Of a stretch of 64,000 nucleotides of DNA, positions 1,178 to 23,387 are shown piece after piece. Position numbers and translations under genes: made by a program. Numbering within the stretch: position 1 is the stretch's first letter; each line of letters starts with the position of its first letter. The notes under the pieces were generated by a model that saw nothing but the letters and a program-made list of their open reading frames with translations, was not told the DNA's origin and made no database searches. Source of the stretch: Coriobacteriaceae bacterium (GTDB lineage Bacteria > Actinomycetota > Coriobacteriia > Anaerosomatales > SLCP01); the NCBI GenBank assembly GCA_003563465.1, contig PWVH01000050.1, positions 753 to 64,752 of the forward strand. Reading direction: 5' to 3'.

Positions 1178-2153
1178 GACGACGGCAAGCTTGTATCACT
1201 TCCGAGGTGACCGGGTGAGCTTTTGCCGCTCCGGACTCGAGAACGTGCCATGCGAATCCGGGTTTGGCTGCAAGTGCAGCCCTGCGGTCGCGAAAGTCCG
1301 AGAGGTAATCGATGAGATCGGTGGCCATCTTCTTCTTGTGATCGACGCACCCGCACTCGGCTGCTCTGCAACACTGGTCCCACCAGGCGAGATCATCTGC
1401 GTCGGGGCTGACGAGCTTGTGTATCTGATGCAGCGGACAGATGTCGGGATCGCCCGGGTCGCTTTTCAGTTTGCGTGCAGGGTCCGTGATCATGCCGCGG
1501 ACTTTGGCGCTTATCTCCTCAGGCGTGTCCGAGATGAAGATCGCGTTGCCATAAGACTTGCTCATCTTGCGTCCGTCGGTACCCGGAACGCGAGCTCCGA
1601 GCTTGGCGATCAGAGCCGCTGGTTCGACCAGGTAATCGCCGAAGGTGTTGTTGAAGCGGCGCACGACTTCGCGTGTCAACTCGAGATGGGGCAGCTGGTC
1701 CTCCCCTACTGGCACGACATCGGCCAGGACGATAGTGATGTCGGCAGCCTGCAGCAGCGGATACATGAAGAAGCCTAGATTCCCAAGATCCTTGTCCGTC
1801 ACCTGCTCCCGCTGCTCCTTGTACGAGGGAACCCTCTCAAGCCAGGGAAGAGGTGTGACCATTGAGAAGTAGAGGGTAAGTTCGGCTACCTCTGGAACAT
1901 CGGACTGCCGGTAGATCGTGCAACGCTCGGGATCCAGTCCTGCAGCGCACCAGTCCAGCACCATATCTTCAGTGTACTCACGAATCCTGGACGTGTCCGC
2001 CCAATCGCTGGTCAGAGCATGCCAATCTGCGATGAAGTAGAACGCATCGTACTCGTCTTGCATCGTGAGCATGTTCTGTAGGTTGCCGAACCAATGCCCG
2101 AGATGAAGCTTGCCCGTGGGACGGTATCCCGTCAGCGCGCGCTTACGTGTCAT
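1152..2153 (-). CDS. trpS: Tryptophan--tRNA ligase (class I), with a C-terminal Cys cluster
   Basis: 333 aa. It carries a HIGH-like GKLHLGH and the KMSKS motif (GRKMSKSYGN). TrpRS-like GYRPTG and YPLLQAADI are also present. Confidence 0.95.
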   Translation of the reverse strand: MTRKRALTGYRPTGKLHLGHWFGNLQNMLTMQDEYDAFYFIADWHALTSDWADTSRIREYTEDMVLDWCAAGLDPERCTIYRQSDVPEVAELTLYFSMVTPLPWLERVPSYKEQREQVTDKDLGNLGFFMYPLLQAADITIVLADVVPVGEDQLPHLELTREVVRRFNNTFGDYLVEPAALIAKLGARVPGTDGRKMSKSYGNAIFISDTPEEISAKVRGMITDPARKLKSDPGDPDICPLHQIHKLVSPDADDLAWWDQCCRAAECGCVDHKKKMATDLIDYLSDFRDRRAALAAKPGFAWHVLESGAAKAHPVTSEVIQACRRLVRIDEDG

Positions 2154-2260
2154 ACGGATTCCTGGTCCTTACCGTGAGTCGGAGTGGCCTTGGATAACGT
2201 GGTTCGGATTGTAGCGCAAGGACTCGGCAGATGAGGCGGGGCGTGCACGACGGGGCAGAC

Positions 2261-2890
2261 TCACCCTAGGCCAGCGAGCAAAAACATCAAAGGAAAAGCG
2301 GTCCGAGAGATGTACCAGCTCAAAGGATTGAAGCCAAGGAAGCTAGGAACCAGCCATACCACCGCAAGAATGATCACGAATCCATACCGCTCGATCTGGT
2401 CATAGATGGCCATGCCTCGATCGGATAGGAACAGCGGCAAGACACGAGAGCCGTCGAGTGGTGGCAACGGTATCAGGTTGAAAAACATCAGTACCAGGTT
2501 CAGCAAACCGAACAGCAGAAGGACGTCCCTGATGATTCCCTGTGCCATCATCCTGAATGCAAGCCCACAGATCACCGCAAGCACCAGATTCGAGGCCGGT
2601 CCCGCGATTCCGGTCAAGAACATGCCCTGACGATAGTTCTTGAACCGGTATGGGTTGATGGGCACGGGTTTAGCGTAACCGAACCCGAATCCTAAGATGG
2701 CGACAAGGAGCAGCGGGAGAAGAATCGTGCCCCATGGGTCGATATGCTGCACCGGGTTGAGGCTGAGTCGCCCCTTGTCCCTGGCCGTCGTATCCCCCAG
2801 TGCCAGTGCGGCCCAACCGTGAGCTACCTCGTGAATCACTATGGCCGGCACAAGTAGGCCGAAACGTAGGGCGATATCGAGAGGGTCCAA
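2261..2890 (-). CDS. Site-2 protease family (peptidase M50) membrane metalloprotease
   Basis: 209 aa and polytopic hydrophobic. It has the HExxH motif HEVAHGWAA and a downstream PLPPLDGSRV (LDG motif). Confidence 0.8.
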   Translation of the reverse strand: MDPLDIALRFGLLVPAIVIHEVAHGWAALALGDTTARDKGRLSLNPVQHIDPWGTILLPLLLVAILGFGFGYAKPVPINPYRFKNYRQGMFLTGIAGPASNLVLAVICGLAFRMMAQGIIRDVLLLFGLLNLVLMFFNLIPLPPLDGSRVLPLFLSDRGMAIYDQIERYGFVIILAVVWLVPSFLGFNPLSWYISRTAFPLMFLLAGLG

Positions 2891-2904
2891 ACTCGCACCA
2901 GATC

Positions 2905-8821: not shown

Positions 8822-10318
8822 CTACCCGAAGGTGAAGAAACGCATCAGCCCTTCGATGCCGGCGATCAGCGGTACGATTCCGACTCCGAGCAGTACCGCC
8901 GCGCAGAGCACGACGGCAATCTCGGGCCCCCTCCCCGACTCCTCAGGCCCCGAAATGTCAGCCATATCTCTGTCGGGCGGCGAAGACCCTGGCACCTCCG
9001 CTTCTGCGAAAGACTCTTCGGGCTCGTCGAAATAGAGTGACTTCAGTACCGATCCGTAGTATCCGAAAGAGATTACTGACGCAAGCACACCTATCAAGGC
9101 CAACCACCAATGCCCGACGGCAACCGCACTTCCGAAGACCAGGAACTTGCCCCAGAAGCCTGCGGTGAGCGGCATGCCCACGAGGGAGAACATCGCCACT
9201 GCAAGGGCCGCGGAGAGCCAACGTCGCTCTTGTCCGAGCCCCGCCAGACCGGCGATGCTGCCATCCCACCGGGGCCGTGCCGAACGAACCGCGGCGGCTG
9301 CGAGAAACGATGCCGACCCGGCAACGGCATAAGCGGAGACGAGCACCGCAGCCGGAGTCATGGCCACGCTGCCGACGGAAAGCGCGACGAGAGCGTATCC
9401 GACCTGTGCGACTCCCGCATAAGCCAGCATACGTGTGTAGGAGAACTGGGTCAGCCCACCGAGGGAACCGAACACCATAGATGCTACCGCTATAGCGCCA
9501 AAGACCCAGAGCAAGTACTCGGATGCGACGTTAGCGAACACAGCTCGCGTGTATAGCGTCATCATCGCAACGATCGCCGCGATCTTGGGCAATCCGGCCA
9601 GCATAGCTGAGGCATACGGGGGTGCCGTTTCGAATGCGTCGAGCGCCCACGAGTGGAAGGGAAACGCACCAAGCTTGTAGGCGAGCGCGACGCCGATGAG
9701 CACGAAAGCGGTCGTTACCGGTGGACCTGGGGAGCTCACCATAAGAGTGCGGATCCATACATAAGACGTCGTGTTGCCGTGCAGGCCGAAGACGATCGCC
9801 AGGCCCAGTACGAACAGACCGGTCGCGACGGCACCTTGTATGAAATACTTGATCGCCGCCTCTGTGGCAGAAGCGGTTCGGGCGGACCACACGAGGGCAT
9901 ACGCGCAAAGAGCCATCGCTTCGAGTGCTATCAGCAAGACAAGAATGTCTGCAGCGGCGACGATTGTAGCCGCAGAAGCGATGACCACGGCACTCAGAGC
10001 AGCCAGTCCACCGCCGTGATCAGCACGAACCAACCTCGGCCACGACGCGGCCAGCATCAGCGCACCGAGTCCGCAGATGACGGAAACGGTACCTGAGAAT
10101 CCCCCTCCGGACAGCGCCACATCTCCAGTGAGCGCCGTGGGTCGTCCGACTGCCGCGGCTCCTAGGACACACGCCAAAGCAGCGCCGGCTACCGCCGCAA
10201 CTACGGCATGGTGACGACGCTCGAAGGCATCCAACGCAATCGCGACGGCAGCGCCCGTGATGCAGGCGATCTGGGGCGCAAAGGCACTGAGTATAGTGAC
10301 TTCGGCCACGTCAGACAC
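8822..10318 (-). CDS. nuoN: NADH-quinone oxidoreductase subunit N (antiporter-like)
   Basis: 498 aa and polytopic. It is last in the nuo series and overlaps nuoM by 8 nt. Confidence 0.85.
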   Translation of the reverse strand: MSDVAEVTILSAFAPQIACITGAAVAIALDAFERRHHAVVAAVAGAALACVLGAAAVGRPTALTGDVALSGGGFSGTVSVICGLGALMLAASWPRLVRADHGGGLAALSAVVIASAATIVAAADILVLLIALEAMALCAYALVWSARTASATEAAIKYFIQGAVATGLFVLGLAIVFGLHGNTTSYVWIRTLMVSSPGPPVTTAFVLIGVALAYKLGAFPFHSWALDAFETAPPYASAMLAGLPKIAAIVAMMTLYTRAVFANVASEYLLWVFGAIAVASMVFGSLGGLTQFSYTRMLAYAGVAQVGYALVALSVGSVAMTPAAVLVSAYAVAGSASFLAAAAVRSARPRWDGSIAGLAGLGQERRWLSAALAVAMFSLVGMPLTAGFWGKFLVFGSAVAVGHWWLALIGVLASVISFGYYGSVLKSLYFDEPEESFAEAEVPGSSPPDRDMADISGPEESGRGPEIAVVLCAAVLLGVGIVPLIAGIEGLMRFFTFG

Positions 10319-11759
10319 CTCCTGCGATCAACTCGGCAAGTGTCGCGAACGCGTCTCCTGACATGTTGAGCACGATCGCCGGACACACGCCCAAGACGAC
10401 GATGGCTGCAACAAGCAGCATCACCGGCACTAGATCGCCAGCATCCAGGTCGCGAAGGGCTCTCCACTCCTCGGCTGGTGGACCGTGCACGACCTCCCGG
10501 ACAGCGCGCAGGTTGTAGGCTGCGGCGATCACCACCCCGATCATCGCGGGAATCATCGGCCACGACCATGCACCGAACGCCTCGATCACGGAAAGGAACT
10601 CCCCGGGGAAACCGGACAGCCCAGGTAGACCCAGGCTCGCAAGCGCTCCGAAGGTCAACGCCGAGCCCCAGCGTGGAGTGACGACACCCAGTCCTGCGAA
10701 ACGTGAGATCTCACGAGTGTGCGTGCGCACGTACAGTTGCCCCACCAAGAGGAAGAGCAGCGGAGCGACCAGGCCGTGGCTCACCATAACTAGCATCGCT
10801 CCAGCAATTCCACGCTCCGTGCCCGCCGAGATCGCAAGAAGAACGAAGCCCATGTGCGATACGCTCGACAGCGCCACGAGCCGCTTCAAGTCGCTTTGCA
10901 CGAGAGCTAGCGCCGCTCCGTAGATGATTCCGACAATCCCCAGGACTGCGAAGACGATCCCTGCATGCGCAAAACTCCCTGGCGAAATCGGCAGTGCCAG
11001 GCGAAGCAGTCCATATCCGCCCATCTTCAGAAGCACACCAGCTAACAGGATTGAGCCTGCAGTGGGAGCCTCGACGTGCGCGTCGGGTAGCCACGTGTGG
11101 ACAGGAAAAGCGGGAAGTTTGACAAGCATGCCGATAGCGATCAGCCAGAATACGAGCGAGGGCTGTGCCAACGCCGTACGGCCCGAGACGAGCATGGAGA
11201 TGTCGGTCTGCCCGATGCCGAAGACGGCCATGAGTATGCCGACCAGCATAAACGCGCTGCCTGCGAAGGTGTAGATGAAGAACTTCATCGCTGCATGACG
11301 ACGGTTCTCATGTCCCCAGATACCGATCAAGAAGTACATCGGGATGAGAACAGCTTCCCAGAACACGTACAGAAGAACGACATCGGCGGCCAGGAATACC
11401 CCGGTCACCGAAGCTTGAAGTCCGAGCAGAAGCGCATGATGCACGCTGGACCGATTATGTTCCCCCCAAGATGCGAGGACCGCTACCAGCCCGGTTAAGG
11501 CGGTCAGTGCAAGCAGCGGTGCGGATAGACCGTCGATTCGCAAGTCCCAGAAAGGCACCGTATCGCGTGCTACCCGCCAACCTTCAAGCGCTACACCACT
11601 GAAGATGCCCTCAGCGGCCAAGAACGCAAGAACTCCAGCGGAAGCGATAGTGGCACCCAGAGACGCAAGCCTGGAAGCCCGTGCCGACAGGCGGCCGACG
11701 CCAACGCACAAGGCAGCGCCTACAAGGGGTACCAGAATCAGGAGTTCTACAGCGAACAT
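10311..11759 (-). CDS. nuoM: NADH-quinone oxidoreductase subunit M
   Basis: 482 aa. It contains WLPDAHVEAPTAGSILLAGVLLKMGGYG, typical of NuoM/ND4. Confidence 0.9.
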   Translation of the reverse strand: MFAVELLILVPLVGAALCVGVGRLSARASRLASLGATIASAGVLAFLAAEGIFSGVALEGWRVARDTVPFWDLRIDGLSAPLLALTALTGLVAVLASWGEHNRSSVHHALLLGLQASVTGVFLAADVVLLYVFWEAVLIPMYFLIGIWGHENRRHAAMKFFIYTFAGSAFMLVGILMAVFGIGQTDISMLVSGRTALAQPSLVFWLIAIGMLVKLPAFPVHTWLPDAHVEAPTAGSILLAGVLLKMGGYGLLRLALPISPGSFAHAGIVFAVLGIVGIIYGAALALVQSDLKRLVALSSVSHMGFVLLAISAGTERGIAGAMLVMVSHGLVAPLLFLLVGQLYVRTHTREISRFAGLGVVTPRWGSALTFGALASLGLPGLSGFPGEFLSVIEAFGAWSWPMIPAMIGVVIAAAYNLRAVREVVHGPPAEEWRALRDLDAGDLVPVMLLVAAIVVLGVCPAIVLNMSGDAFATLAELIAGGV

Positions 11760-11760
11760 G

Positions 11761-13605
11761 CTAGAACCCCCGTCCCAGGTAAGCGACTAACGCAAGCAAG
11801 GCAACAGCACCGGCGCCGGACATGATGGCATACCATTGCGCGTCGCCTGACTGCAGCGACGTGAAGCCCCGTCCGAGGCGTCGAGCCGCCGGCCCCGTTC
11901 CTTCTGCGATCCTGTTGATCAACGAGCCCTCGACGAATACATCAAGAAGCGCCGAAGCCCGAGTGACAGGCCCTACCAGCATCGCATTGACAAGCGCATC
12001 TCCGCCCCATCCCCCGCGAGCGATAATGATGAGTTTTCCGGTTGACGTCGAGGGTCCAGGGTCGCTGGCAGAAGCCGCAGTGAACCATCCGCTGAGCAAC
12101 CCGACGATGGCTATGCCAGCGGACGCGAGAGCGATTCCTGGGTCGAGATCACCATGATGCCCCCCTATCAACGCTGCAATCACCCCGCCAGTGACACCAA
12201 AGATGGCGGCGCCGACAGCGAGCACCAGAAGCGGCAGCTGCATTTCCGGACCGCCCTCATGAGGATGTCCCGCACCTCGGTAGGTCCCGAAGAACGCGAG
12301 CCGGGTAGTACGAGCGACGTAAAACGCGGTCAGAAGGCTGGCACCGAAGAGTACGGCCGCCCAGAGCGGCTGCACGCCCCAGACACCGTGCAGGATCTCA
12401 TCCTTGCTGAAGAAGCCTGCCAAGGGCGGTACCCCTGCTAGAGCTAGTGCGCCAACAGCCCAAGTCGCACCCGTGATCGGCATTCTCTTGAACAAACCAC
12501 CCATTTCGTAGACATCCTGAACGCCCCCACAACCGTGAATCACGCTGCCGGAGCCAAGGAAGAGCAACGCCTTGAACATGGCATGCGTGACCAGGTGAAA
12601 GAGTGCGGCCTCCCACGCTCCGGCGCCGAGAGCAGCGAACATGAAGCCGAGTTGGCTGATTGTCGAGTAGGCGAGCACCTTCTTGATGTCGCGCTGGGCA
12701 GCTGCGGCGCAAGCAGCTGCAATCGCCGTGAAGCCGCCTATCGCGAGGGTCACCATGGCCGCTGTAGCCGACAGCGAGTAGAGTGGCCATATGCGTACGA
12801 TCAAGAAAACGCCAGCGGCAACCATTGTCGCCGCGTGGATCAAGGCCGAGACGGGTGTGGGACCTTCCATGGCGTCGGGCAGCCATATGTGTAGCGGGAA
12901 CTGAGCGGACTTGCCCACCGCACCAAAGAGTAGCAGCAGACTCACACTGGTGAGAACCGCTCCCGGTAGTGCGCTAGCCATCCCGAAGACCGCAGCATAC
13001 GAGAGGTCGCCGACCTCTCGCCACAGAAGCGCAAGTGCGAGCAGGAGTCCGATATCACCTACGCGAGTCGTCAAGAAGGCCTTCACCGCTGCTTTGGCCG
13101 CGGCGGGTTTCGTGAACCAGAAGCCGATCAGAAGGTAGGAGCAAGCGCCGACAAGCTCCCAGCCTATGAAGAGACCAAGGAACCCATCAGCGAGTACCAG
13201 AAGGCTCATCGATGCTGTGAACAGCGACAGGGTTGCAAAGTAGCGAGGCAGCCCCCTCTCGCCAGCCATGTATCCCGAGGAGAAGACCATGACGAGTAAT
13301 GCCACCATTCCGACAACGACAAGCATGAGCCCAGTCAGTCCGTCGACAGCCCAGCCAACAGCCATCCCGCCGTCTCCAGCTGCGGGCAGCCATACCGCAG
13401 CACCTCGTGCCAGCACGCCGCCTTTCTCTGCCGCGGACAACACCTCGAAGCAAGCCACGATACCGTAGAAGAGAACCCAAGCGGGTGCCAACGCCGAGAC
13501 ATACGCGATTCCTCGTCCGAGGAATCGCCCGACGAGTCCGACCAACAACGCGATCGCAAGAGGCAGCGCGACTACCGACCAGCCGTATGCGAGCACCACG
13601 CTCAC
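11761..13605 (-). CDS. nuoL: NADH-quinone oxidoreductase subunit L
   Basis: 614 aa. It contains WLPDAMEGPTPVSALIHAATMVAAGVFL, typical of NuoL/ND5. Confidence 0.92.
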   Translation of the reverse strand: MSVVLAYGWSVVALPLAIALLVGLVGRFLGRGIAYVSALAPAWVLFYGIVACFEVLSAAEKGGVLARGAAVWLPAAGDGGMAVGWAVDGLTGLMLVVVGMVALLVMVFSSGYMAGERGLPRYFATLSLFTASMSLLVLADGFLGLFIGWELVGACSYLLIGFWFTKPAAAKAAVKAFLTTRVGDIGLLLALALLWREVGDLSYAAVFGMASALPGAVLTSVSLLLLFGAVGKSAQFPLHIWLPDAMEGPTPVSALIHAATMVAAGVFLIVRIWPLYSLSATAAMVTLAIGGFTAIAAACAAAAQRDIKKVLAYSTISQLGFMFAALGAGAWEAALFHLVTHAMFKALLFLGSGSVIHGCGGVQDVYEMGGLFKRMPITGATWAVGALALAGVPPLAGFFSKDEILHGVWGVQPLWAAVLFGASLLTAFYVARTTRLAFFGTYRGAGHPHEGGPEMQLPLLVLAVGAAIFGVTGGVIAALIGGHHGDLDPGIALASAGIAIVGLLSGWFTAASASDPGPSTSTGKLIIIARGGWGGDALVNAMLVGPVTRASALLDVFVEGSLINRIAEGTGPAARRLGRGFTSLQSGDAQWYAIMSGAGAVALLALVAYLGRGF

Positions 13606-13911
13606 CTAACCTCTCACCTTCACGATCTCGTCGATACGTGTGGTCTTAAAGCGTCGTGAGACCGAGATCACGAGAGCGAGACCGACAGCGGCCTCGGCAG
13701 CAGCCAGGACAATCACCATAAGTCCTACGCCTTCGACCATGCCTTCCGAGCCTTGTACGGTCCTTCCGGCAACGGCGAGACCGACGAGGAGCAAAGTAGC
13801 GGACCCCAGCATCACCTCTATGCTCGCTAGAATCGCTACGAGATCACGGCGAGTGAGCACACCGTAGAGCCCTATACAGAACAGTCCTACTGCAATCACA
13901 AGCAGGCTCAC
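13606..13911 (-). CDS. nuoK: NADH-quinone oxidoreductase subunit K
   Basis: 101 aa with 3 TM helices. It has a conserved Glu-containing IEVMLGSATLL and AAAEAAVGLAL. Confidence 0.9.
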   Translation of the reverse strand: MSLLVIAVGLFCIGLYGVLTRRDLVAILASIEVMLGSATLLLVGLAVAGRTVQGSEGMVEGVGLMVIVLAAAEAAVGLALVISVSRRFKTTRIDEIVKVRG

Positions 13912-14405
13912 CGCTCATCACCTCCGCGCATGATCACTACAACGACCACTAGCGCGACAAGAAGGAGGACGCCTGCCATCTCGAAGTGGGCGAGCATCGG
14001 GCCGAGGAGTGCCTCGGCCAGCTCGGTTGTCCCGGTCACGAGTCCGTGATCCACTGTGTCGGGCACTACTCCGCTGAGAGCGGTCACGACCATCACGAAC
14101 AGACCGCCGGCGACTGCGACCGCAGAGACGTCATGGCGGGTCTCGAGTCTCGGAGAGCCATCCGGAGTGCGGTGAACGAGCATGATTGCGAAAAGCATCA
14201 AAACGAGAACGCCGCCCACGTAGACGAAGAGCTGCGCGACACCAAGAAACGTCGCACCCCAGTAAACGAAGAAGCCGGCAACAGCTAGTAGGAACGCTCC
14301 GAGGCCGATCGCCATGCGAGAGACGTCTGCGGCAAAGACCGTCGCGAGGCCTCCAGCCACAGCTACGATTCCCAAGACCGTAAACACCGCGCTCTCGACA
14401 CTCAA
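13908..14405 (-). CDS. nuoJ: NADH-quinone oxidoreductase subunit J
   Basis: 165 aa. It sits between nuoI and nuoK and contains FLGVAQLFVYVGGVLVLMLF. Confidence 0.85.
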   Translation of the reverse strand: MSVESAVFTVLGIVAVAGGLATVFAADVSRMAIGLGAFLLAVAGFFVYWGATFLGVAQLFVYVGGVLVLMLFAIMLVHRTPDGSPRLETRHDVSAVAVAGGLFVMVVTALSGVVPDTVDHGLVTGTTELAEALLGPMLAHFEMAGVLLLVALVVVVVIMRGGDER

Positions 14406-16405
14406 TCCGACACCTCCCCGTTTCCTTCGCGCCCTGAATCGCGTCCAGTCGCTCGTGTGCCCTCGCCACTCCTGAGCATCTCATCGCAATCGAAGACCAT
14501 CAGATCACGATGGAAGAAGGTCAGTTCGTATTGTCCTGTGTGCGTAAGTGCGTCCGTAGGACACTGTTGGGCGCACAAGCCACAGAAGCAGCACTTCGAG
14601 AGATCGAGATCGTAGAGCGTGACTCGTCGCTGACCCGGGTCGTCGATGCGCTCCACCTGTATCGCGTAGTCCGGACACGTCCGGGCGCAGAAGGTGCATC
14701 CCACACACACCTCGGACTGGCACCTCAAACACCTCATCGCCTCGCCCAGGGCCTCCATTTGTGTCAGCCCGAGCTCGACAGGACGGAAGTCAGTGACCCT
14801 TTCCTCGGGTCGGGCCATCGGCACGGTGACGCGACGACGTTCCCCTTCGACTCCATCGAGGAGGGCGGGCTGATACTCCTCGTAGAGGGGAACCGGACGT
14901 ACGACTCTTCCCTCAGTCACGCTCTGCCCCTGCAAGTAGCGATGGATCGACTCTGCTGCCTCGTGACCTGTGGCGATAGAGACGATCGCGCTCCCAGGAC
15001 CGGTCACGACCTCACCGCATGCAAAGACCTGTTCCTGGGCGGTGGTGAACACCGTCCCATCAACAGGTAGCATCCCGCGGTCGGTCAGAGTGAGCTCGGA
15101 GCCCTCGATCACGTCTGCGAGCACCGGCGCCTGGCCGATCGCGAAGACCACAACGTCTGTCGATATGTCCGTGTACTCATCACCGAATTCGGGAGCGAAG
15201 CGGCCCTTCTCGTCGAAAACCGAGATGCACTCGCGCATCCTCATGCCTCGAACCGATCCGATCGCGCTCACCAACACCTCTTCGGGACCCAAAGAGCACA
15301 TCGCAATCACGCCCTCATCGAGGGCTTCTTCGATCTCCCAGGGATGACATGGCATCTCGGCGTCGGACTCGAGGCATGCAAGTCGGACTTCCGTAGCTCC
15401 GGTACGCAGAGCGCAACGCGCAACATCAACGGCTACGTTACCGCCTCCGATAACAAGCACCCTAAGCCCCTTAACGCCCGCATCGCCCTTCCAGTTCGCT
15501 GCGCGCAGAAACGGGAGTGCGCCCTCCACGCCTTCGGCGTCGTGACCAGGAAGCGGCAGTATGCGGCTCTCCTGAAGACCAACGGCTATCAGGACCGCGT
15601 CGTAGACGTCGAGTAGACGGTGCATCGACACATTCTTGCCTACCTCGACCCCAAGCTTGAGATCTAGGCCCATCTTGACGAGGTTTCCTATCTCGTCATG
15701 CAGCACCTCTCGAGGTAGGCGGTAGGCAGGCACACCCGAGTAGAGCGCGCCGCCGGGCTTCTCGTCCTTCTCGTAGACCGTCACGCGGTAGCCGAGTCTC
15801 ATCAAATCGTACGCAGCAGTGAGACCGGACGGCCCGGAGCCTATGATTGCTATGCGCTCATCGTGGTGAACAGTAAAGGGCTTCAACCGCTCGTCGGCCA
15901 CTTTCCGGTATTCCTCGTAGGCGTGTCGATGCAGCGGGCGGATGGCTATGGGCTCGTCATAATAGTTGCGCCTGCATGCTGACTCGCAAGGATGATGACA
16001 GATTCGGCCCAGTACCCCAGGGAATATGTTTCGCTCGCGCACGAGTTCGTACGCCTCAGATGGCTTCCCCTCGCCGAGGAGATAACCCTGGCCGCGCGCG
16101 TCGACGTTAGCGGGGCAGTTTCCTACGCACGCGGGCAGGCGATTCTCACGATAGAGCCCGTCGATCAGGGCATTGTAGGCTGGCGGCCCTGCGGAAAGCA
16201 CGGAGATCTCGTCGCGACCGAGAACGCCGCGAAGTCTCAGCGCACCACGCCACCGGGGTGACAGGACTACCTTCTCCCTCGGGTATCGCACGGTACCGAC
16301 AGGGCGCAGAGCTTGCCTGCCCGTGATGGTCAGACCGGTGAGCAGGGAGCGCACCCGCGCAAAGATGCCTGCTGCGCCAGAGGGGTAGTCATTTGTGGCG
16401 TTCAC
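14402..16405 (-). CDS. nuoI: NuoI (2x[4Fe-4S] subunit) interrupted by a GltD/NfnB/SudA-like NAD(P)H-dependent FAD/Fe-S oxidoreductase module
   Basis: Proposed start is the GTG at 16405, which overlaps the nuoH TGA as GTGA. The NuoI N-terminus is LLTGLTITGRQALRPVGTVRYPREKVVLSPRWRGALRL. The middle carries ACVGNCP...NIFPGVLGRICHHPCESAC, IAIIGSGPSGLTAAYDL, YEKDEKPGG and VLVIGGGNVAVDVARCA. The C-terminus has CVGCTFCARTCP and CCFCGLCAQQCP (NuoI clusters N6a/N6b). It is one uninterrupted frame. Confidence 0.85.
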   Translation of the reverse strand: MNATNDYPSGAAGIFARVRSLLTGLTITGRQALRPVGTVRYPREKVVLSPRWRGALRLRGVLGRDEISVLSAGPPAYNALIDGLYRENRLPACVGNCPANVDARGQGYLLGEGKPSEAYELVRERNIFPGVLGRICHHPCESACRRNYYDEPIAIRPLHRHAYEEYRKVADERLKPFTVHHDERIAIIGSGPSGLTAAYDLMRLGYRVTVYEKDEKPGGALYSGVPAYRLPREVLHDEIGNLVKMGLDLKLGVEVGKNVSMHRLLDVYDAVLIAVGLQESRILPLPGHDAEGVEGALPFLRAANWKGDAGVKGLRVLVIGGGNVAVDVARCALRTGATEVRLACLESDAEMPCHPWEIEEALDEGVIAMCSLGPEEVLVSAIGSVRGMRMRECISVFDEKGRFAPEFGDEYTDISTDVVVFAIGQAPVLADVIEGSELTLTDRGMLPVDGTVFTTAQEQVFACGEVVTGPGSAIVSIATGHEAAESIHRYLQGQSVTEGRVVRPVPLYEEYQPALLDGVEGERRRVTVPMARPEERVTDFRPVELGLTQMEALGEAMRCLRCQSEVCVGCTFCARTCPDYAIQVERIDDPGQRRVTLYDLDLSKCCFCGLCAQQCPTDALTHTGQYELTFFHRDLMVFDCDEMLRSGEGTRATGRDSGREGNGEVSD

Positions 16406-17352
16406 AGCCACGAGATCACCGCCCCTACCAACACGAGTTGAATGAGCGCCATCGGGGTGAGTACCTTCCATGCGGTCGCCATGAGCTGGTCTGGGCGCAT
16501 GCGTGGGAAGGTCCACGACACCCAGAGCATCAGCAGCGCGATGACCAGGGCCTTCAGAACGAATACGATCACTCCGAGCGCTCCAGGAACGCCGAGATAG
16601 CCTCCGAAGAACACGGCGGCGCCGAATAGCGAGGCAGCGACGAGACCACCGTACTCGGCCATCGCGAAGATGGCCCATCGGATTCCCGAGTAGTCAGCGA
16701 ACGGGCCGGCGACGAGCTCGGCCTCAGCCTCTGGTAAGTCGAACGGAACGCGGTTGATCTCGGCAAGTGAAGCGATGAAGTAGACGATGAAGCCTATGAA
16801 GGTCAGTGGTATCCACCACCACTGCCATGCGTCCATGATGTCTAGGGGGCGCATCGAACCAGCGAGCAGCACGACCGGCAGCACCGACAGGGTGCGCGGA
16901 AGCTCGTAAGAGATCATCTGAGCTGCGGCGCGAAGTCCCCCGAGTGTGGCGTAAGTGTTGCGAGAAGACCATCCGGCAAGTAGCACGCCCACCACAGAAA
17001 TTGCGGGCACGGCGACGAAGAAAAGCACGCCGACCCCCGTGTCGATGGGTGCGAACCCGTAGGCGTACGGAATCACAGCGAGCGACATCGCAGCAGGCGC
17101 GAATACGATCAGGGGTGCTACCCGAAAGATGCGTACGTCGACGGCTGCAGGGGTGATGTCTTCTTTGAGCAGGAGCTTCAAAGTGTCGGCGCCGGTCTGG
17201 AGCAGACCGAAGGGACCTAACTCCTGAGGCCCGTAGCGTAACTGTATGCGTCCGGCGATCTTCCGCTCGCCCCACACCCCGATGAAGGCTGCAAGCGAGA
17301 TGACCATACCGGCGGCAAGACCGTATATCGCTCCCCAAATGAGGCCGCTCAC
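16402..17352 (-). CDS. nuoH: NADH-quinone oxidoreductase subunit H
   Basis: 316 aa. It contains GERKIAGRIQLRYGP and EINRVPFDLPEAEAELVAGPFADYSG, typical of NuoH/ND1. Confidence 0.93.
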   Translation of the reverse strand: MSGLIWGAIYGLAAGMVISLAAFIGVWGERKIAGRIQLRYGPQELGPFGLLQTGADTLKLLLKEDITPAAVDVRIFRVAPLIVFAPAAMSLAVIPYAYGFAPIDTGVGVLFFVAVPAISVVGVLLAGWSSRNTYATLGGLRAAAQMISYELPRTLSVLPVVLLAGSMRPLDIMDAWQWWWIPLTFIGFIVYFIASLAEINRVPFDLPEAEAELVAGPFADYSGIRWAIFAMAEYGGLVAASLFGAAVFFGGYLGVPGALGVIVFVLKALVIALLMLWVSWTFPRMRPDQLMATAWKVLTPMALIQLVLVGAVISWL

Positions 17353-18503
17353 CTGTCCACCTCCCCGAACACCGGGTCGAGGCTTCCCAGGATGACGACC
17401 AAGTCGGAAAGAAGGTGTCCTTCTGCGAGCATCGGAAGCAGTGCTAAGTTGCAGAAGGCCGGTGAACGGACTTTCATGCGATAAGGCCGCGGACTACCGT
17501 CGGAGACGAGGTATACACCCAAAGAACCACGAGCAGACTCAATGTGGTCGTATGCGTCCCCGGGTAGCGGAGCAAGCAGACGAGGAACACCGTCTGCCAT
17601 GATCGCGCCAGGCTCTAGCTGTGCGATGGCCTGCTCGATGATACTGCACGACTCGTAGCACTCCAACAGACGAACGCGACCGCGATCGTAGCAATCTCCG
17701 TTGCTGCCTATGGGAACTTCGAAATCCAGGCGCGGATAGACCGAGTAAGGGTCGTGCTTGCGTAGGTCCCACTCGACTCCGGAGCCTCGTGCGACGGGCC
17801 CTGAGGCGCCCCACGCTACCGCTTCCTCTGCCGAAAGGACGCCAACGCCTTTCATGCGACCTCTGGCGATGACGTTTCCGAAGAAGAGCTTGTCCATCAT
17901 GTCGAGGCCTTTGCGATGCGATTCACAGAACGCCAGCAGGCTTTCGATCCATCCCTCGGGCAGGTCGTGGCTCACCCCGCCAGGGCGTACGTAGTTGTAC
18001 GTCAGTCGTGCACCACAGAGTTCCTCGAAATGCTCGATTATGCGTTCTCTCTGGTCGAAGGCGTAGACAAACTGTGTCACGGCGCCGGAGTCGGCCCCGG
18101 CAGACCCGATCGCCATCATGTGGCTTGCAATGCGCTGCATCTCGCAGACGATCACCCTGAGATACTCGGCTCGATCCGGAACTCGAATTGAGGCAAGCCG
18201 TTCGACTGCACGGCAGTACGCCCAGTTCGCATACATCGAGCCGACGTAGTCGAGCCGGTCGGTCAGAGGAACCACCTGCAGATACGTACGGTTCTCAGCC
18301 ATCTTCTCGATGCCGCGGTGCAGATGCCCGATGACAGGCTCGGCCTTGGTGACGATCTCGCTGTCGAGATGAGCGATCACCCTGCATACTCCGTGAGTGG
18401 AAGGGTGCGACGGCCCGACGTTGACCACGAGTTCCTCGACGGTCCCGCCTTCTTCAACTTCGACGACCCGTCTGCTTTCGACATCGAGTCCCAAATCGCA
18501 CAC
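17349..18503 (-). CDS. nuoD: NADH-quinone oxidoreductase subunit D
   Basis: 384 aa. It contains NVGPSHPSTHGV, GHLHRGIEK and a C-terminal LGSLDPVFGEVDR. Confidence 0.93.
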   Translation of the reverse strand: MCDLGLDVESRRVVEVEEGGTVEELVVNVGPSHPSTHGVCRVIAHLDSEIVTKAEPVIGHLHRGIEKMAENRTYLQVVPLTDRLDYVGSMYANWAYCRAVERLASIRVPDRAEYLRVIVCEMQRIASHMMAIGSAGADSGAVTQFVYAFDQRERIIEHFEELCGARLTYNYVRPGGVSHDLPEGWIESLLAFCESHRKGLDMMDKLFFGNVIARGRMKGVGVLSAEEAVAWGASGPVARGSGVEWDLRKHDPYSVYPRLDFEVPIGSNGDCYDRGRVRLLECYESCSIIEQAIAQLEPGAIMADGVPRLLAPLPGDAYDHIESARGSLGVYLVSDGSPRPYRMKVRSPAFCNLALLPMLAEGHLLSDLVVILGSLDPVFGEVDR

Positions 18504-18538
18504 CTCCCCTCACAAGCCGCCTCACGTCGAAACGACTC

Positions 18539-19000
18539 TCAGATGTAGTCAGGTCTACGAATCATTCGCTCATCACGGTAGTCCTTGCGAAGTGGGTGAC
18601 CTTCCCAATCCTCGGGCAGCATGATCCGTCTAAGATCCGGGTGACCATCGAACACGATTCCGAACAAGTCGAAGACCTCGCGTTCCTGCCAAAGCGCAGC
18701 AGGCCACAAATCGACTAGCGACTTGACCCGGGGATTTTCGCGCGGCACCGAACACTTCAGAAAGATGCCCGCCAACATCGAACGTGACTGAAGCCGATAC
18801 ACGAGCTCGAACTCCTCAGCCTGGTCGACAGCCGTCACCATACCGAGACGATCGAAGCCAAGGTCTCTTAAGTCAGACGCTGCATCGAAGAGGTTACCGC
18901 ACGGAACTGCTAGCACCCCGTCGCCGAATTCGATGGAAAACAGAGGACACAGGTCCGGGTAGACCTGGCAGAGATGATCGCGAAGGTCGGTGATCTTCAC
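18539..19000 (-). CDS. nuoC: NADH-quinone oxidoreductase subunit C
   Basis: 153 aa. It contains WQEREVFDLFGIVFDGHPDLRRI and is separate from nuoD. Confidence 0.9.
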   Translation of the reverse strand: MKITDLRDHLCQVYPDLCPLFSIEFGDGVLAVPCGNLFDAASDLRDLGFDRLGMVTAVDQAEEFELVYRLQSRSMLAGIFLKCSVPRENPRVKSLVDLWPAALWQEREVFDLFGIVFDGHPDLRRIMLPEDWEGHPLRKDYRDERMIRRPDYI

Positions 19001-19557
19001 TCGCCGTCACCTTCTGCCGCATCGCGAGGAAGAGTGAACGCGCCCTTGCGCTTGTGTCCGGGAGCTATCGACTCGGTCGCAATGATTTCTCGGAGGCGCA
19101 ACACGCCGTCTTGGAGCGATTCCGGTCTCGGCGGACAGCCGGCAATGTGAACATCCACAGGCAAGATCTCATCGACTCCACGCACGACCGAATAAGTGTC
19201 GTAGTAGAATATGCCGCCTGAGACCGCGCAGTTACCCATGGCGATGACCCACTTGGGATCGGCCATCTGCTCATACAGGCGCTTAATGACAGGCGCCATC
19301 TTATGGGTAATGGTTCCAGCAACGATCATCACGTCAGTGTGCCGAGGATCGAAGAACGGGATAGTGCCATGCCGGTCGAAGTCGAACTTGCTGAAAGATG
19401 CTGCAATGAGCTCCATAGCGCAGCATGCGGTTCCCATCGGCATCGCCCAGAGAGACTTGCCGCGGCAGTAATCCAGCAGCGCATCGACCGAGGTCAGTAT
19501 GACGCTGCCGCCACGTCCCCCATCGAGCTTCTCGCCTAAGCGATCGACTATCGCCAT
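18997..19557 (-). CDS. nuoB: NADH-quinone oxidoreductase subunit B (N2 cluster)
   Basis: 186 aa. It contains GTACCAMEL, the MGNCAVSGG region and GCPPRPE. Confidence 0.93.
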   Translation of the reverse strand: MAIVDRLGEKLDGGRGGSVILTSVDALLDYCRGKSLWAMPMGTACCAMELIAASFSKFDFDRHGTIPFFDPRHTDVMIVAGTITHKMAPVIKRLYEQMADPKWVIAMGNCAVSGGIFYYDTYSVVRGVDEILPVDVHIAGCPPRPESLQDGVLRLREIIATESIAPGHKRKGAFTLPRDAAEGDGE

Positions 19558-19940
19558 TCGAGAATCCCCTTACGCCATGCGTATAGCAGGCCAAGCGTAA
19601 GCAGCCCTACGAAGACACCTACCGCGATCACGCCGGCTGGGAATCCACGCAGGCCGCCGGCAACAGCGAAGAGCATGGCTGCCTCCGCATCGAAGATCAC
19701 TAGCAGCAACGCCAAACCAGTAAAGCGTACGCGCACTGCAGCCCACGGGACGCCTGCCGGCGGCATTCCGCACTCGTATGGCTCAAGCTTTTCCGGAGTG
19801 GGATTGCGAGGCGAGACGACAGCGCTGAGCAAGAACACGATGAGGATGAAGGCTACTGCGGCAAGCGCGAGCCCTATGACAGACAGTACGCTATCGGCGT
19901 ACGCTCCCTCCACGAACTCCCCCTGCCCTGATGCCGCCAC
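19548..19940 (-). CDS. nuoA: NADH-quinone oxidoreductase subunit A
   Basis: 130 aa, first in the operon. It contains EKLEPYECG and FDAEAAMLF. The start codon is GTG and its exact position is uncertain. Confidence 0.85.
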   Translation of the reverse strand: MAASGQGEFVEGAYADSVLSVIGLALAAVAFILIVFLLSAVVSPRNPTPEKLEPYECGMPPAGVPWAAVRVRFTGLALLLVIFDAEAAMLFAVAGGLRGFPAGVIAVGVFVGLLTLGLLYAWRKGILEWR

Positions 19941-20042: not shown

Positions 20043-22007
20043 TTATTCTCTGTTCTCCAGCCGTTCCAGCGCATCAGCCAGGGCTATCCACTCCTCCTCC
20101 AGCTGTGCCAGATGTGGCTTGATCTCGGAATACTCTTTCGTAGCTGCTTCGAATGCAGAGGAGTCCGCATAGAACGACGGTTCGGCCATCAGGTCCAAGA
20201 GCTCGTCGCGCCTGACCTGTATGCGCGCCAGCTCGCTTTCAACCCTAGCGAGTCGCTCGCGTGTGGCGCGTGTCTCGCGAAAGGCCAAGTTACGTGCGTC
20301 GGCCTCTGCGCGCCTCTGTTCTCTTCGCGTCGCGGCCCTCGTCGCTTCGCCGCCCGTCTCTGCTCCCACACCGCACCTCTGAGAAGCGTCAGCCTCTGAG
20401 CGTTTGAACAAGTAGTAGTCGTAGTCCCCTGCAAATACCGTTGCTTGTCCCTCTCGCACCTCGACGATTTTGTTGGCAACCTCACGAATCAAATGACGGT
20501 CGTGAGTAATGAGCACGATCGTGCCTTCGAAGTGCGCGAGCGCAGCCTCCAAGACGTCTGAGGATGCAATGTCTAGGTGGTTTGTCGGTTCGTCGAGACA
20601 TAGCAGCGGAGCGGGCTCTACCAGCATCTTGGCGAGTACCAAGCGGCATCGCTCTCCACCCGAGAGAACGCCGACCTTCTTGTCGACATCGGTACCGCTG
20701 AACAGGAAAGCTCCTAGCAGACGCCTGATTTCCGCATTGGTCCACCCTTGAGCGATCCCATCCAGTTCGGTCAAGACCGTCTCGGACGTATCGAGGGCTT
20801 CGAGCTGGTGCTGCGCGAAATAGGCAACGTCCACGTGAGCACCGTAGGCGCGTTCGCCGGCGTCCGGGTCGACGACGCCGGCGAGAATCTTGAGCAGGGT
20901 CGACTTGCCTGCACCGTTCGGTCCGACGAGCGCCACCTTATCTCCCCGGTAGAGCGTAAGATCGAGCGAATCGTAAACAGTGTTGCTGCCGTATGCTTTG
21001 CGAACCCCAGCAAGTCGCACCACCTCGTCTCCCGTGCGCACCGGCTGCGGGAATGCGAACCTCACAGTCTTGCGATGCTCGGGGATTTCCACGAGTTCGG
21101 CTTTGATCTTCTCGATCCGCTTGAGCCTGTCCTGTGCCTGACGCGCTTTCGTGTTCTTGTAGCGAAAACGGTCAACGAAAGCCTGCATATGAGCGATCTC
21201 GCGCTTCTGGCGCTCGTGTGTGGCCCGGCGCTGCTCCATCGCGACCTCTCGCTGGCTGAGATAGCTTGCGTACGTACCCGTGTAAGTTACGACGCGTCGC
21301 TGCTCGATCTCTGCCACGTGATCTGCAAGTCCTTCTATGAAGGCACGGTCGTGACTTACCAGCACGATCGCGCCTTCATACGAATGGAGGAAAGACTCCA
21401 ACCAGTTCACGGTCTCCAGGTCGAGGTGGTTGGTCGGCTCGTCCAAGAGAAGAACATCGGGTTTGGCAAGAAGCAGCTTGGCGAGCGCGAGCCGCATGAG
21501 CCATCCGCCTGAGAGCTCCTCCGTCGGACGAGGCAGGTCAGACTCGCCGAAACCGAGCCCGGTAAGCACGGCTCGGGCCTCGGTCTCGATCGTGTAACCA
21601 CCCGCGTGCTCGAAGCGATCGCGAAGCCGCCCGTACTCCTCAAGCAAGCCGGTTGCATCGGGAGAAGAAGGATCGTCGTGCTCTGCGATATCCGATTCGA
21701 GCAGGCGGATCCTATGTTCGAGTGAGGTGACCTCGTCAGCGGCGCTCAGAGCCTCGGTGAGCACAGTGCGACCGCGCATCTCGATAGCCTCTTGTCTGAG
21801 ATAGCCGACGACAGCGTCTCTCGCTCGAGTGATGCTTCCGTCATCGGGTGTCTGCAGCCCAGCGATTATCTCGAGCAGCGTCGTCTTACCAGATCCGTTA
21901 GGGCCGAGCAGGGCTATCCGATCGCGCACGCCTATGCGCAGCGAAGCATCTTCGAAGAGAACTCGCTCCCCGAAGGTTTTCGTCACGGAGTCGACGGAGA
22001 TAATCAC
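20043..22007 (-). CDS. ABC-F family ATPase (two ABC cassettes, no TMD; Uup/EttA-like) with a C-terminal coiled-coil tail
   Basis: 654 aa. It has two Walker A motifs (GPNGSGKTT, GPNGAGKST) and two signature motifs (LSGGWLMR, LSGGERCR). The tail is Arg/Glu-rich. Confidence 0.9.
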   Translation of the reverse strand: MIISVDSVTKTFGERVLFEDASLRIGVRDRIALLGPNGSGKTTLLEIIAGLQTPDDGSITRARDAVVGYLRQEAIEMRGRTVLTEALSAADEVTSLEHRIRLLESDIAEHDDPSSPDATGLLEEYGRLRDRFEHAGGYTIETEARAVLTGLGFGESDLPRPTEELSGGWLMRLALAKLLLAKPDVLLLDEPTNHLDLETVNWLESFLHSYEGAIVLVSHDRAFIEGLADHVAEIEQRRVVTYTGTYASYLSQREVAMEQRRATHERQKREIAHMQAFVDRFRYKNTKARQAQDRLKRIEKIKAELVEIPEHRKTVRFAFPQPVRTGDEVVRLAGVRKAYGSNTVYDSLDLTLYRGDKVALVGPNGAGKSTLLKILAGVVDPDAGERAYGAHVDVAYFAQHQLEALDTSETVLTELDGIAQGWTNAEIRRLLGAFLFSGTDVDKKVGVLSGGERCRLVLAKMLVEPAPLLCLDEPTNHLDIASSDVLEAALAHFEGTIVLITHDRHLIREVANKIVEVREGQATVFAGDYDYYLFKRSEADASQRCGVGAETGGEATRAATRREQRRAEADARNLAFRETRATRERLARVESELARIQVRRDELLDLMAEPSFYADSSAFEAATKEYSEIKPHLAQLEEEWIALADALERLENRE

Positions 22008-22037
22008 CGTGACAGTCTAGCAGGGAGGATGTGCGAC

Positions 22038-23387
22038 GTGGACTCGCAAGGAAAAGTAGTCGTGATCGGATCAGGGGCGGCAGGTCAGGGCACTGCGCGA
22101 ACGCTTGTCGCAGCGGGATGGCATGTGACGGTCGTCGAGCGCGGTAAGGTAGGAGGTACTTGCCTCTGGTACGGATGCATGCCGAAGAAGGCTCTATACA
22201 ATGCGGCCCGCGCGCGCCGCTTGGGAGTTCGCGCCGAGTTGTTCGGTCTCGATCTCGCAGATGGCTTCGACTGGCAGAGCGTACTCGCATGGAAGTGGCA
22301 CGCTCAGGAGACCTATGCCGGAGATCAGGTCGCCATCATGGCCGACCGAGGTATAGAACTCGTACACGGAGATGCGCGGTTCGTCTCCGCTCTTGAGATC
22401 GCAGTTGAAGACCAGGTGTTCGAATTCGATCACGCCGTCATTGCGACCGGATCACGTCCGGTCATACTCCCTGTCGAAGGCACCGGCCTTGGGGACACGA
22501 GTGACGATGCCTTGAGCTACGGACATGTCCCAACCTCTCTCTTGGTAGTTGGCGCTGGCTTCATTGGCATCGAGATGGCGACGATTTATGCCTCCTTCGG
22601 CAGCGAAGTGACGGTCGTCACTAACGCTCAGCGTCCATTGGATACCCTCGACGAAGACGTGGCTCTGATCGCAGTGCGCCGCCTCGAGCGCATGGGTGTG
22701 CGTTTCTTCTCTTCATGTCGCATGCAGCGCTTGAGTGGGAGCAGAGGTGCTATCGATGTGGAGTTCACCGATGGCGAGAACACGGAGCGCTCAGGCAGGT
22801 GGGAGCGGGTTCTCGTGGCTGCAGGTCGACGGCCCGCTATCGCAGATCTTGCTCTGGAGGCAGCCGCTATCACGATCGATGGCCAGGGGGGAATCGTGTT
22901 GGACGAGAACCAATGCACCACGAATCCTCGTGTCTGGGCAGCGGGAGACGCTGCCGGAGGCGCGATGCACACTCCTGTCGCCAGCTACGAGGGTCGTACC
23001 GTCGCCGCCTCTATCGACTCCGGAGTCCCCGTAGTAATCGACTCCTCGCTAATACCCTCGTGCCTCTACACTTCACCTCAAATCACCCAGGTGGGGCTCA
23101 CCGAAGCCCAAGCGCGCTCCAGCGGGATGTCGGTCGATGTCAGCCGGATGCCCTTCGAGTATCTAGGCGCTGCAGTCATCGAGGACGAGCGGGACGGAAT
23201 CGTTAAACTCGTGTTCGCCGAGGACGACGGGCGACTTGTCGGCGCACAGGTTGCCGGCCCCACCGCAAGCGACCTCATCTACGCCCTCGCTCTGGCAATA
23301 CGTTGCGGAGCAACGCGCGACACTCTGCGTGCGACTGTGGGGATACACCCAGCTTACTCGGAGGCCTTGAACTGGGCAGCCGGCTAG
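22038..23387 (+). CDS. Class I pyridine nucleotide-disulfide oxidoreductase (dihydrolipoyl dehydrogenase / glutathione reductase family)
   Basis: The ORF is open from 21792, but that part overlaps the ABC-F gene. The GTG at 22038 lies 9 nt after GGGAGG. Motifs are VVVIGSGAAGQG (FAD), the GGTCLWYGCMPKK redox CxxxxC, VVGAGFIGIEMA (NAD) and a C-terminal GIHPAYSE. Confidence 0.85.
   Translation: MDSQGKVVVIGSGAAGQGTARTLVAAGWHVTVVERGKVGGTCLWYGCMPKKALYNAARARRLGVRAELFGLDLADGFDWQSVLAWKWHAQETYAGDQVAIMADRGIELVHGDARFVSALEIAVEDQVFEFDHAVIATGSRPVILPVEGTGLGDTSDDALSYGHVPTSLLVVGAGFIGIEMATIYASFGSEVTVVTNAQRPLDTLDEDVALIAVRRLERMGVRFFSSCRMQRLSGSRGAIDVEFTDGENTERSGRWERVLVAAGRRPAIADLALEAAAITIDGQGGIVLDENQCTTNPRVWAAGDAAGGAMHTPVASYEGRTVAASIDSGVPVVIDSSLIPSCLYTSPQITQVGLTEAQARSSGMSVDVSRMPFEYLGAAVIEDERDGIVKLVFAEDDGRLVGAQVAGPTASDLIYALALAIRCGATRDTLRATVGIHPAYSEALNWAAG

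Follow-up and report, generated by a model that had tools for sequence, protein, structure and literature searches.

GltD (the small subunit of glutamate synthase), NfnB (NfnI-L) and the N-terminal half of dihydropyrimidine dehydrogenase (DPD) share a module made up of a Fer4_20 and a Pyr_redox_2 domain, with flavin adenine dinucleotide (FAD), a nicotinamide site and two [4Fe-4S] clusters. In these proteins the Fer4_20 element is in its normal N-terminal order, the module is NADPH-specific (YRR motif), and none of them is a component of a membrane pump. NfnB bifurcates together with NfnA, and in DPD the two-cluster module hands electrons to an 8Fe-ferredoxin-like domain (PMC8097209). In StnC (8oh5_C) and the large subunit of NfnABC (9bov_A, 9n5u_A), the GltD-like module is itself inserted in a complex-I-type iron–sulphur (Fe-S) subunit, which is a soluble NuoG/FdhF-like host with a [2Fe-2S] N-terminus. 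The StnC module passes NADPH electrons through two [4Fe-4S] clusters to a cluster chain without bifurcation, and in GltS, two [4Fe-4S] clusters of such a module likewise relay NAD(P)H electrons to another chain of Fe-S clusters (PMC10482914). Here, we report a module of this kind within NuoI, a subunit of a membrane complex. It is encoded by a gene, referred to as nuoI*, in contig PWVH01000050.1 of a Coriobacteriaceae bacterium (GenBank assembly GCA_003563465.1). The 64 000 nt of this contig that were analysed (positions 753 to 64 752, forward strand) are called the window, and all coordinates are those of the window.

NuoEFG of the 14-subunit complex I and FpoF of the F420H2 dehydrogenase are proposed as the functional equivalents of the insert. 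In both, a flavin oxidises a two-electron carrier and feeds the cluster N6a through Fe-S clusters. However, these are separate subunits and NuoEFG uses flavin mononucleotide, whereas the nuoI* product is predicted to use FAD on a domain that is covalently part of NuoI, with only two intervening clusters. The nearest precedent comes from the mbx-like operons of Thermotoga and some proteobacteria. Degli Esposti (2015, PMC4758237) noted that in these complex-I-like gene clusters a gltD-related flavoprotein takes the place of NuoI. Those operons are of the Mbx/Mrp type, their NuoD homologue has vestigial hydrogenase cysteines and the flavoprotein was interpreted as an outlet that reduces NAD(P)+. 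In contrast, nuoI* is part of a genuine nuoA-N set in which the quinone-site residues are present, and it keeps both ends of NuoI; the mbx-like proteins were compared by description only.

The comparisons reported below indicate that nuoI* is probably the gene for the NuoI subunit in a complex I of 11 subunits, in which the inserted GltD/NfnB-type module stands in for NuoEFG.

A flavoprotein module between the two ends of NuoI

The gene and its parts are as follows.

14402..16405, minus strand: nuoI* gene, NuoI-GltD-NuoI fusion of 667 codons (open reading frame, Pfam, NCBIfam, homologues)
16208..16405, minus strand: NuoI N-terminal segment, residues 1-66, a helix and then YPREK...SPRWRGALRLRG (spliced alignment from residue 20, TIGR01971)
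15881..16207, minus strand: linker and main part of the permuted Fer4_20, residues 67-175, with predicted ligands C93, C97, C136, C140, C144 and H159 (Fer4_20 profile positions 30-109)
14966..15856, minus strand: FAD and NAD(P)H core, residues 184-480, with GSGPSG (FAD), GGGNVAVD (nicotinamide nucleotide) and ACGEVVTGPGSAI (Pyr_redox_2, 84.9 bits)
15365..15376, minus strand: C344-L-E-S347, at the place where NADPH-binding relatives have Y-R-R-(T/S/G), probably what decides for NADH over NADPH (alignment to five solved NADPH enzymes)
14720..14800, minus strand: displaced N-terminal Fer4_20 element, residues 536-562 (...LGEAMRCLRC), with C559 and C562 as predicted ligands of the distal [4Fe-4S] cluster (permuted construct)
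14402..14719, minus strand: NuoI 2x[4Fe-4S] ferredoxin domain and C-terminal tail, residues 563-667, and the stop codon (Pfam, NCBIfam, alignments)

The features shared with canonical NuoI/Nqo9/TYKY (NDUFS8) are the YP.EK..PR(F/W)RG segment, two CxxCxxCxxxCP motifs with a long spacer, the C-terminal tail and the position of the gene between nuoH and nuoJ. The difference is that the nuoI* product carries ~495 extra residues in the loop, ~10 residues long in canonical NuoI, that leads to the first cysteine of N6a. In Pfam, the product matches Fer4_20 (residues 91-167), Pyr_redox_2 (184-480) and Fer4_7 (567-619), all over the curated cut-offs, and no Fer2, Molybdopterin or NuoG domain was found in it, the module being all that it has in common with StnC and the NfnABC large subunit. 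The Fer4_20 score was 57.3 bits (cut-off 25.8) and that of Pyr_redox_2 84.9 bits (cut-off 26.1), with the GSGPSG, GGGNVA and GE..TG motifs present.

The NCBIfam NuoI models match the product in two separate stretches, with Fer4_20 and Pyr_redox_2 between them, which is the outcome that an earlier interpretation of this DNA, made from the letters without database searches (the sequence-only reading), had expected. A spliced construct, consisting of residues 1-66 and 561-667 (173 aa), aligned to mitochondrial TYKY and bacterial NuoI chains in a single stretch, 20-155 (E = 6.6e-25), and covered positions 1-120 of the 121 in TIGR01971. The same interpretation had assigned the start of the protein to the NuoI N-terminus and its end to both cluster motifs of NuoI, and this uninterrupted alignment of the spliced halves is as that assignment would have it. 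The TIGR01971 score was 89.7 bits for the intact product (two stretches) and 105.9 bits for the spliced one, in both cases below the cut-off of 113.05, and the product appears to be a divergent NuoI that falls just under the curated cut-off.

The splice point lies in the loop RRYPxGEERC, immediately before its cysteine. In canonical NuoI, this loop runs from the RG..L strand to the first N6a cysteine in motif 1. The alignment places ~10 residues between the RG..L segment and this cysteine in canonical NuoI, the spacing that had been given from the letters. In canonical NuoI, the N-terminal segment packs against NuoH/NuoD. In the fusion this segment (helix and YP.EK..PR.RG) is present and conserved, with Y41, P42, R53 and G54 invariant in the 54 close relatives and the 12 distant representatives described below, but it lies ~495 residues away from the ferredoxin core and is contiguous with it only after in silico splicing. 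The ferredoxin domain has two CxxCxxCxxxCP motifs (C567/570/573/577 and C605/608/611/615) with a NuoI-type spacer of ~26 residues, and all of these cysteines are invariant.

The insert itself (residues ~67-560, ~495 residues) is a GltD/NfnB-type FAD and NAD(P)H module. Its matches among solved structures include the NfnABC large subunit (9bov_A, E = 7.2e-92), StnC (8oh5_C, E = 6.8e-84) and NfnB (4ylf_B, E = 3.2e-71), and further solved relatives are Thermococcus NfnABC (9n5u_A), NfnI-L (5jca_L) and GltD (2vdc_G and 6s6s_G). An AlphaFold2 (AF2) monomer model was built from a 54-sequence alignment. The predicted local distance difference test (pLDDT) score of the flavoprotein core (residues ~170-500) was >90, and the top Foldseek matches of the model were StnC (E = 5e-46), NfnABC, NfnI and GltD, in the order of the sequence search. 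Pfam and the sequence and fold matches thus uphold the claim of a full GltD-type flavoprotein module within NuoI. The GltD/DPD label that came with that claim is correct for the family, but the closest relatives are of the StnC/NfnABC type and not plain GltD. The curated model PRK12771 (NF009410, 'NAD(P)-binding protein') gave 439.7 bits over residues 88-621, below its cut-off of 516, and leaves out the NuoI N-terminal segment and the C-terminal tail of the nuoI* product.

The profile matches show that the Fe-S domain of the insert is circularly permuted, a point absent from the sequence-only reading. In native order, Fer4_20 was matched at profile positions 30-109 (48.9 bits). The first ~29 positions, with EAMRCLRC, were found after the flavin domain at residues ~536-562, and a permuted construct (525-563 and 89-175) matched positions 1-109 with 75.9 bits. 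The permuted order (...CP.../flavin domain/EA.RCL.C) is shared with StnC and NfnABC. H159 aligns with K170 of StnC, the non-cysteine fourth ligand of the flavin-proximal cluster, and Glu is found there in NfnB. Across the fusion family, this ligand position varies between His and Lys.

Two published tables bear on the ligands of the NuoI clusters. In human TYKY, A159 is described as 'next to Cys126 coordinating cluster N6a' in a clinical table (PMC9783039), and a table for the E. coli structure places Phe92 near N6a and Leu48 and Cys74 near N6b (PMC8357420). In the numbering derived in this analysis, Cys126 (mature numbering) would be the CP cysteine of motif 2, and the E. coli residue list agrees with the usual pseudo-twofold ferredoxin geometry. 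We infer that the first three cysteines of motif 1 and the CP cysteine of motif 2 bind N6a, the electron-entry cluster. The N6a ligands would then be C567, C570, C573 and C615, and those of N6b C577, C605, C608 and C611. C559 and C562 precede the first N6a ligand, with four residues between C562 and C567, and the five peptide bonds from C562 to C567 span at most ~19 Å and usually much less. As the permuted Fer4_20 puts C559/C562 by C567, the separation of the distal cluster from N6a would be covalently limited if the ligand assignment is right. NuoG covers the N6a face of NuoI in 14-subunit enzymes, and in this 11-subunit complex the same face would be without a NuoG cover.

In the mechanism that we propose, a hydride would be transferred from NAD(P)H to FAD, and single electrons would pass from FAD to the proximal [4Fe-4S] cluster (C97, C136, C140, H159), from there to the distal [4Fe-4S] cluster (C93, C144, C559, C562) and on to N6a (C567, C570, C573, C615), N6b and N2 in NuoB. 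The electrons would thereby reach the quinone site of NuoD, NuoB and NuoH and drive proton pumping by NuoL, M and N. This wiring follows the logic of DPD, in which the clusters of the module feed an 8Fe-ferredoxin-like domain, and is similar to the supply of Fe-S chains by GltD-like modules in StnC and glutamate synthase. The location of the insertion beside N6a, the permuted ligands and the conservation lend support to the earlier suggestion that the insert could link NAD(P)H oxidation to the N6a/N6b-N2 chain.

Operon context and distribution of the fusion

The operon has the order nuoABCDH-I*-JKLMN, with all genes on the minus strand (neighbours identified with NCBIfam). The nuoABCDH block is at 16402..19940 and the nuoJKLMN block at 8822..14405.

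19548-19940, minus strand: nuoA (NCBIfam)
18997-19557, minus strand: nuoB (NCBIfam), N2 cysteines kept
18539-19000, minus strand: nuoC (NCBIfam)
17349-18503, minus strand: nuoD (NCBIfam), quinone-site His and Tyr kept
16402-17352, minus strand: nuoH (NCBIfam)
13908-14405, minus strand: nuoJ (NCBIfam)
13606-13911, minus strand: nuoK (NCBIfam)
11761-13605, minus strand: nuoL (NCBIfam)
10311-11759, minus strand: nuoM (NCBIfam)
8822-10318, minus strand: nuoN (NCBIfam)

Because nuoD abuts nuoH, there is no space for nuoEFG in the operon, and none of the large open reading frames elsewhere in the 64 kb window, which are housekeeping genes, resembled nuoE, nuoF or nuoG. The absence of nuoE/F/G from the operon had been pointed out previously, as had the uninterrupted frame of 667 codons between nuoH and nuoJ, which was found at the same coordinates. 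This frame is open on the minus strand, and a reading of the gene on the plus strand was ruled out because that frame is full of stops at 14402-16405. The stop codon is 14402-14404, and the GTG start at 16405 shares 4 bases with the nuoH stop. A second candidate start, GTG 16411, is two codons upstream and gives a product of 669 aa instead of 667 aa, and the database protein P0001, which is identical to the nuoI* product, has 669 aa. One of these two GTG codons is the likely start. A longer frame of 758 aa from 16678 was rejected, as it overlaps nuoH by 277 nt and the homologues and P0001 begin near 16405/16411. The G+C content is even across the whole gene, and a scan for promoters and terminators gave results at chance level.

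None of the 15 cluster cysteines varies in 12 representatives at 36-66 % identity or in 54 close relatives, and the same holds for the glycine motifs for FAD and NAD. More than 120 clusters of full-length homologues were found at 66-100 % identity, and those with names are Coriobacteriia. Full-length fusions at 65-79 % identity are present in 49 loci (one genome per species; Coriobacteriia/Anaerosomatales), which include Anaerosomatales metagenome-assembled genomes (MAGs) and strain EMTCatB1. All 49 have nuoABCDH-I*-JKLMN as far as the contig extends, with nuoD adjoining nuoH, and a closed 2.5 Mb genome has an identical operon layout and identical flanking genes. When 1.84 billion representatives (50 % identity) were searched exhaustively, at least 12 clusters of full-length fusions were recovered, the most distant at 36-38 % identity, and the nine distant clusters that were looked up all sit in nuo clusters. 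The nuoD-nuoH adjacency and the H-I*-J order were also seen in the distant representatives whose contigs extend that far, with the exception of L081. In this short metagenome contig (1-2584), the fusion P0128 (of the M-L-E subtype, see below) directly follows nuoD with no nuoH between them, an order unlike that of the other loci. Long NuoI homologues, for which a survey had been proposed, are common and, L081 apart, lie in nuo operons in which nuoD is next to nuoH. Besides Coriobacteriia/Anaerosomatales, the fusion occurs in at least 11 more divergent lineages, with several uncultivated ones among them; the source names of the distant ones are only 'bacterium' or 'Actinomycetota bacterium'.

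These data bear on whether the insert is inert, as a structural cap or a decayed remnant, or the long frame an artefact of assembly or annotation, either of which we consider extremely unlikely. The poor AF2 model of the NuoI part would fit such an explanation, as would the scores for the curated models NuoI and PRK12771, which stay below their cut-offs. However, every cofactor ligand and nucleotide motif is retained without change in relatives of as little as 36 % identity, and the same frame is found in >120 protein clusters, in 49 species genomes and in the closed 2.5 Mb genome, with even G+C content. Mis-assembly, a concern raised when the frame was first described, and recent transfer were ruled out by the conservation, the gene order shared by 49 genomes and the even G+C content, and the frame is kept across dozens of independent assemblies. 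By these comparisons, the fusion is a conserved architecture under selection.

Some of the loci and neighbouring genes have features of their own. In L078, a distant fusion-bearing operon, a gene for a 1389-aa StnC/formate-dehydrogenase-like protein (132-4301; Fer2_4, Fer4_20, Pyr_redox_2 and Molybdopterin) lies directly upstream of nuoA at 4433, placing two GltD-like modules at one locus. In L077 (11196-17962), another distant fusion operon, there are four antiporter-like genes (Proton_antipo_M) and, after nuoK, one additional small open reading frame, and the membrane arm would be longer than the usual L, M, N set. Outside NuoI, the insert is closest, at about 40 % identity, to StnC-like open reading frames of 1100-1500 aa in an Actinomycetota MAG (L067, 2653-5985) and an Anaerolineae MAG (L050, 4929-9485).

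In the window, neighbouring genes were rejected as partners of the complex, as the flanks contain housekeeping genes only. A pyridine-nucleotide disulfide oxidoreductase gene (21792-23387, plus strand) is on the opposite strand, with an ABC-F gene between it and the nuo operon. The longest open reading frame for this oxidoreductase (Pyr_redox_2 and dimerisation domain) and the divergent ABC-F gene (20043-22007, minus strand) share ~215 nt at the start of the latter; the Pfam match starts at residue 88 and the true start probably lies further downstream. A membrane H+/Na+-translocating pyrophosphatase (H_PPase, 896 bits) is encoded at 32939-35038 (minus strand), 13 kb from the nuo operon, giving this small genome of an anaerobe a second ion pump.

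Electron donor, acceptor and direction of flow

An acidic residue at the 2'-phosphate site is a classical mark of NAD over NADP. In all five of the solved NADPH-binding relatives that were aligned, YRR(T/S/G) follows the second strand of the nicotinamide fold. In the clade that includes the window protein YRR has been lost throughout and E346 is invariant. The L-E subtype comprises the window protein, P0124-P0127 and, as M-L-E, P0128, and the YRR subtype comprises the more distant lineages P0129-P0131, P0154, P0161 and P0162. StnC differs from the window protein in keeping YRR (NADPH type), as well as in having Lys170 in place of His159. Arg325 of the P. furiosus NfnI-B (PfNfnI-B) contacts NADP(H) (PMC12221290) and, in a residue mapping that is approximate, corresponds to the YRR/CLE motif. 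Because YRR is replaced by CLE and E346 is invariant, the window clade is more likely to use NADH than NADPH.

Turning to the acceptor, NuoD retains the His (PSTHGV) and Tyr (RLDY) of the quinone site together with the C-terminal DPVFGEVDR and lacks hydrogenase (NiFe) cysteines, and the N2 ligands (CC, GNC, GCPP) are retained in NuoB. The quinone-site residues of NuoD were placed using the T. thermophilus Nqo4 numbering. These residues point to a quinone-reducing complex I, as opposed to one of the Mbh/Mbx/FHL type. No quinone-biosynthesis genes were found in the window. Hydrogenases with cytochrome b and formate-dehydrogenase-like enzymes normally need quinones. Both are encoded by the cultured Anaerosomatales, as a cytochrome-b-linked hydrogenase and a formate-dehydrogenase-like enzyme, along with a dihaem-b molybdoenzyme anchor and a complex I whose quinone-site residues are intact (PMC9686372). 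These isolates have nuoNMLKJIHDCBA, with no nuoEFG anywhere in the genome, as is known from the gene list of the paper describing them, in which the insert is not mentioned (PMC9686372).

Several points weigh against an NAD(P)H-oxidising input to a quinone-reducing complex. Respiratory quinones were reported as not detected in two cultured Anaerosomatales, which also lack complexes II and III, and a quinone is thus only a putative terminal acceptor of the complex. The authors of that study proposed ferredoxin as the donor (PMC9686372). In addition, the NADH versus NADPH call is based on one motif and on the approximate residue mapping, and the pLDDT of the AF2 model is <50 in the NuoI parts (residues 38-66 and 559-667), where the model is unreliable.

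In another explanation, reduced ferredoxin is the donor and docks near N6a, as it does in photosynthetic NDH-1, which would make the flavin module a second port; variants of this explanation make the arm a ferredoxin:NAD(P)+ oxidoreductase, let ferredoxin and NAD(P)H jointly feed the quinone site, or involve bifurcation. Besides the proposal for the Anaerosomatales complex (PMC9686372), it can draw on stand-alone Fer4_20 and Pyr_redox_2 proteins being ferredoxin:NADP+ oxidoreductases, on bifurcation by NfnB (PMC12221290, PMC10482914) and on the gltD-related protein of mbx-like operons having been read as an NAD(P)+-reducing site (Degli Esposti, PMC4758237). However, the operon contains no NfnA-like partner and the product no further conserved Cys/His cluster motif, leaving no second exit from FAD. 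The Arg after EMPA (Arg333 of PfNfnI-B), which is near the flavin, is conserved only in bifurcating NfnB (PMC12221290); by approximate residue mapping, its position is His354 here and variable in the fusion family, and StnC, the closest solved relative, does not bifurcate (PMC10482914). A shunt to NAD(P)+ within the arm would skip N2 and the coupling site, and the insert probably covers the surface above N6a on which a donor would dock. Together with its variants, a ferredoxin donor is judged to be very unlikely.

The direction of electron flow may also be questioned, as complex I is reversible and the wire, if reversed, could reduce NAD(P)+ at the cost of membrane potential. Electrons from quinol, formed by quinone-reducing H2 or formate dehydrogenases, would then be pushed to FAD by the membrane potential, supplying lithoautotrophs with NAD(P)H for CO2 fixation and biosynthesis. 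The cultured relatives are able to grow as lithotrophs on H2 or formate; they possess the Wood-Ljungdahl pathway and a [NiFe] hydrogenase of group 1i with cytochrome b (PMC9686372). In several distant fusion lineages, the NADPH-type YRR is kept, which would suit biosynthesis, whereas its loss in the window clade favours the catabolic carrier NADH. Electron direction is not readable from sequence, and the failure to detect quinones in the isolates weakens the forward and reverse readings equally. Operation in reverse seems rather unlikely, and oxidation of NAD(P)H by the insert, with electrons passing to N6a, remains the reading that we prefer.

Novelty and meaning of the fusion

A NuoI-GltD fusion in nuo operons was not found in the literature covered (full text; complex I surveys, an Fe-S flavoenzyme review and the OPB41/Anaerosomatales genome papers). 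In a 2020 OPB41-related genome paper, gltD and nuo are both included in the abbreviation key of a gene-cluster figure. The sequence-only reading did not recognise this as a described architecture, which agrees with the literature covered as far as nuo operons are concerned, but a gltD-related substitute for NuoI has been described for mbx-like operons, and the fusion is not unique to this genome. In databases, the fusion genes are labelled 'FAD-dependent oxidoreductase' or 'glutamate synthase beta subunit-like', and with such generic labels operon surveys could miss NuoI or call the donor unknown.

On balance, the comparisons favour an undescribed class of respiratory complex I, in which an FAD domain within NuoI would oxidise NAD(P)H as a second, independent evolutionary answer to the job of NuoEFG. 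This would mean that the quinone/pump core can be joined to a flavoprotein unrelated to NuoF, with a parallel in the GltD-like cassette inserted in the NuoG-like protein of Stn and NfnABC. The insert would be a minimal input module in a single polypeptide, in which no more than two clusters separate the flavin from N6a, and so compact an FAD-based input may be useful for structural and engineering work.

The donor of the widespread 11-subunit complex I, which is without NuoEFG, has long been debated, and ferredoxin or unknown partners have been discussed, also for the cultured relatives (PMC9686372). If the reading preferred here is true, it would settle this long-open question for the organisms that bear the fusion. 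The fusion offers a concrete candidate donor module for a whole set of lineages, and one that is testable in cultured Anaerosomatales.

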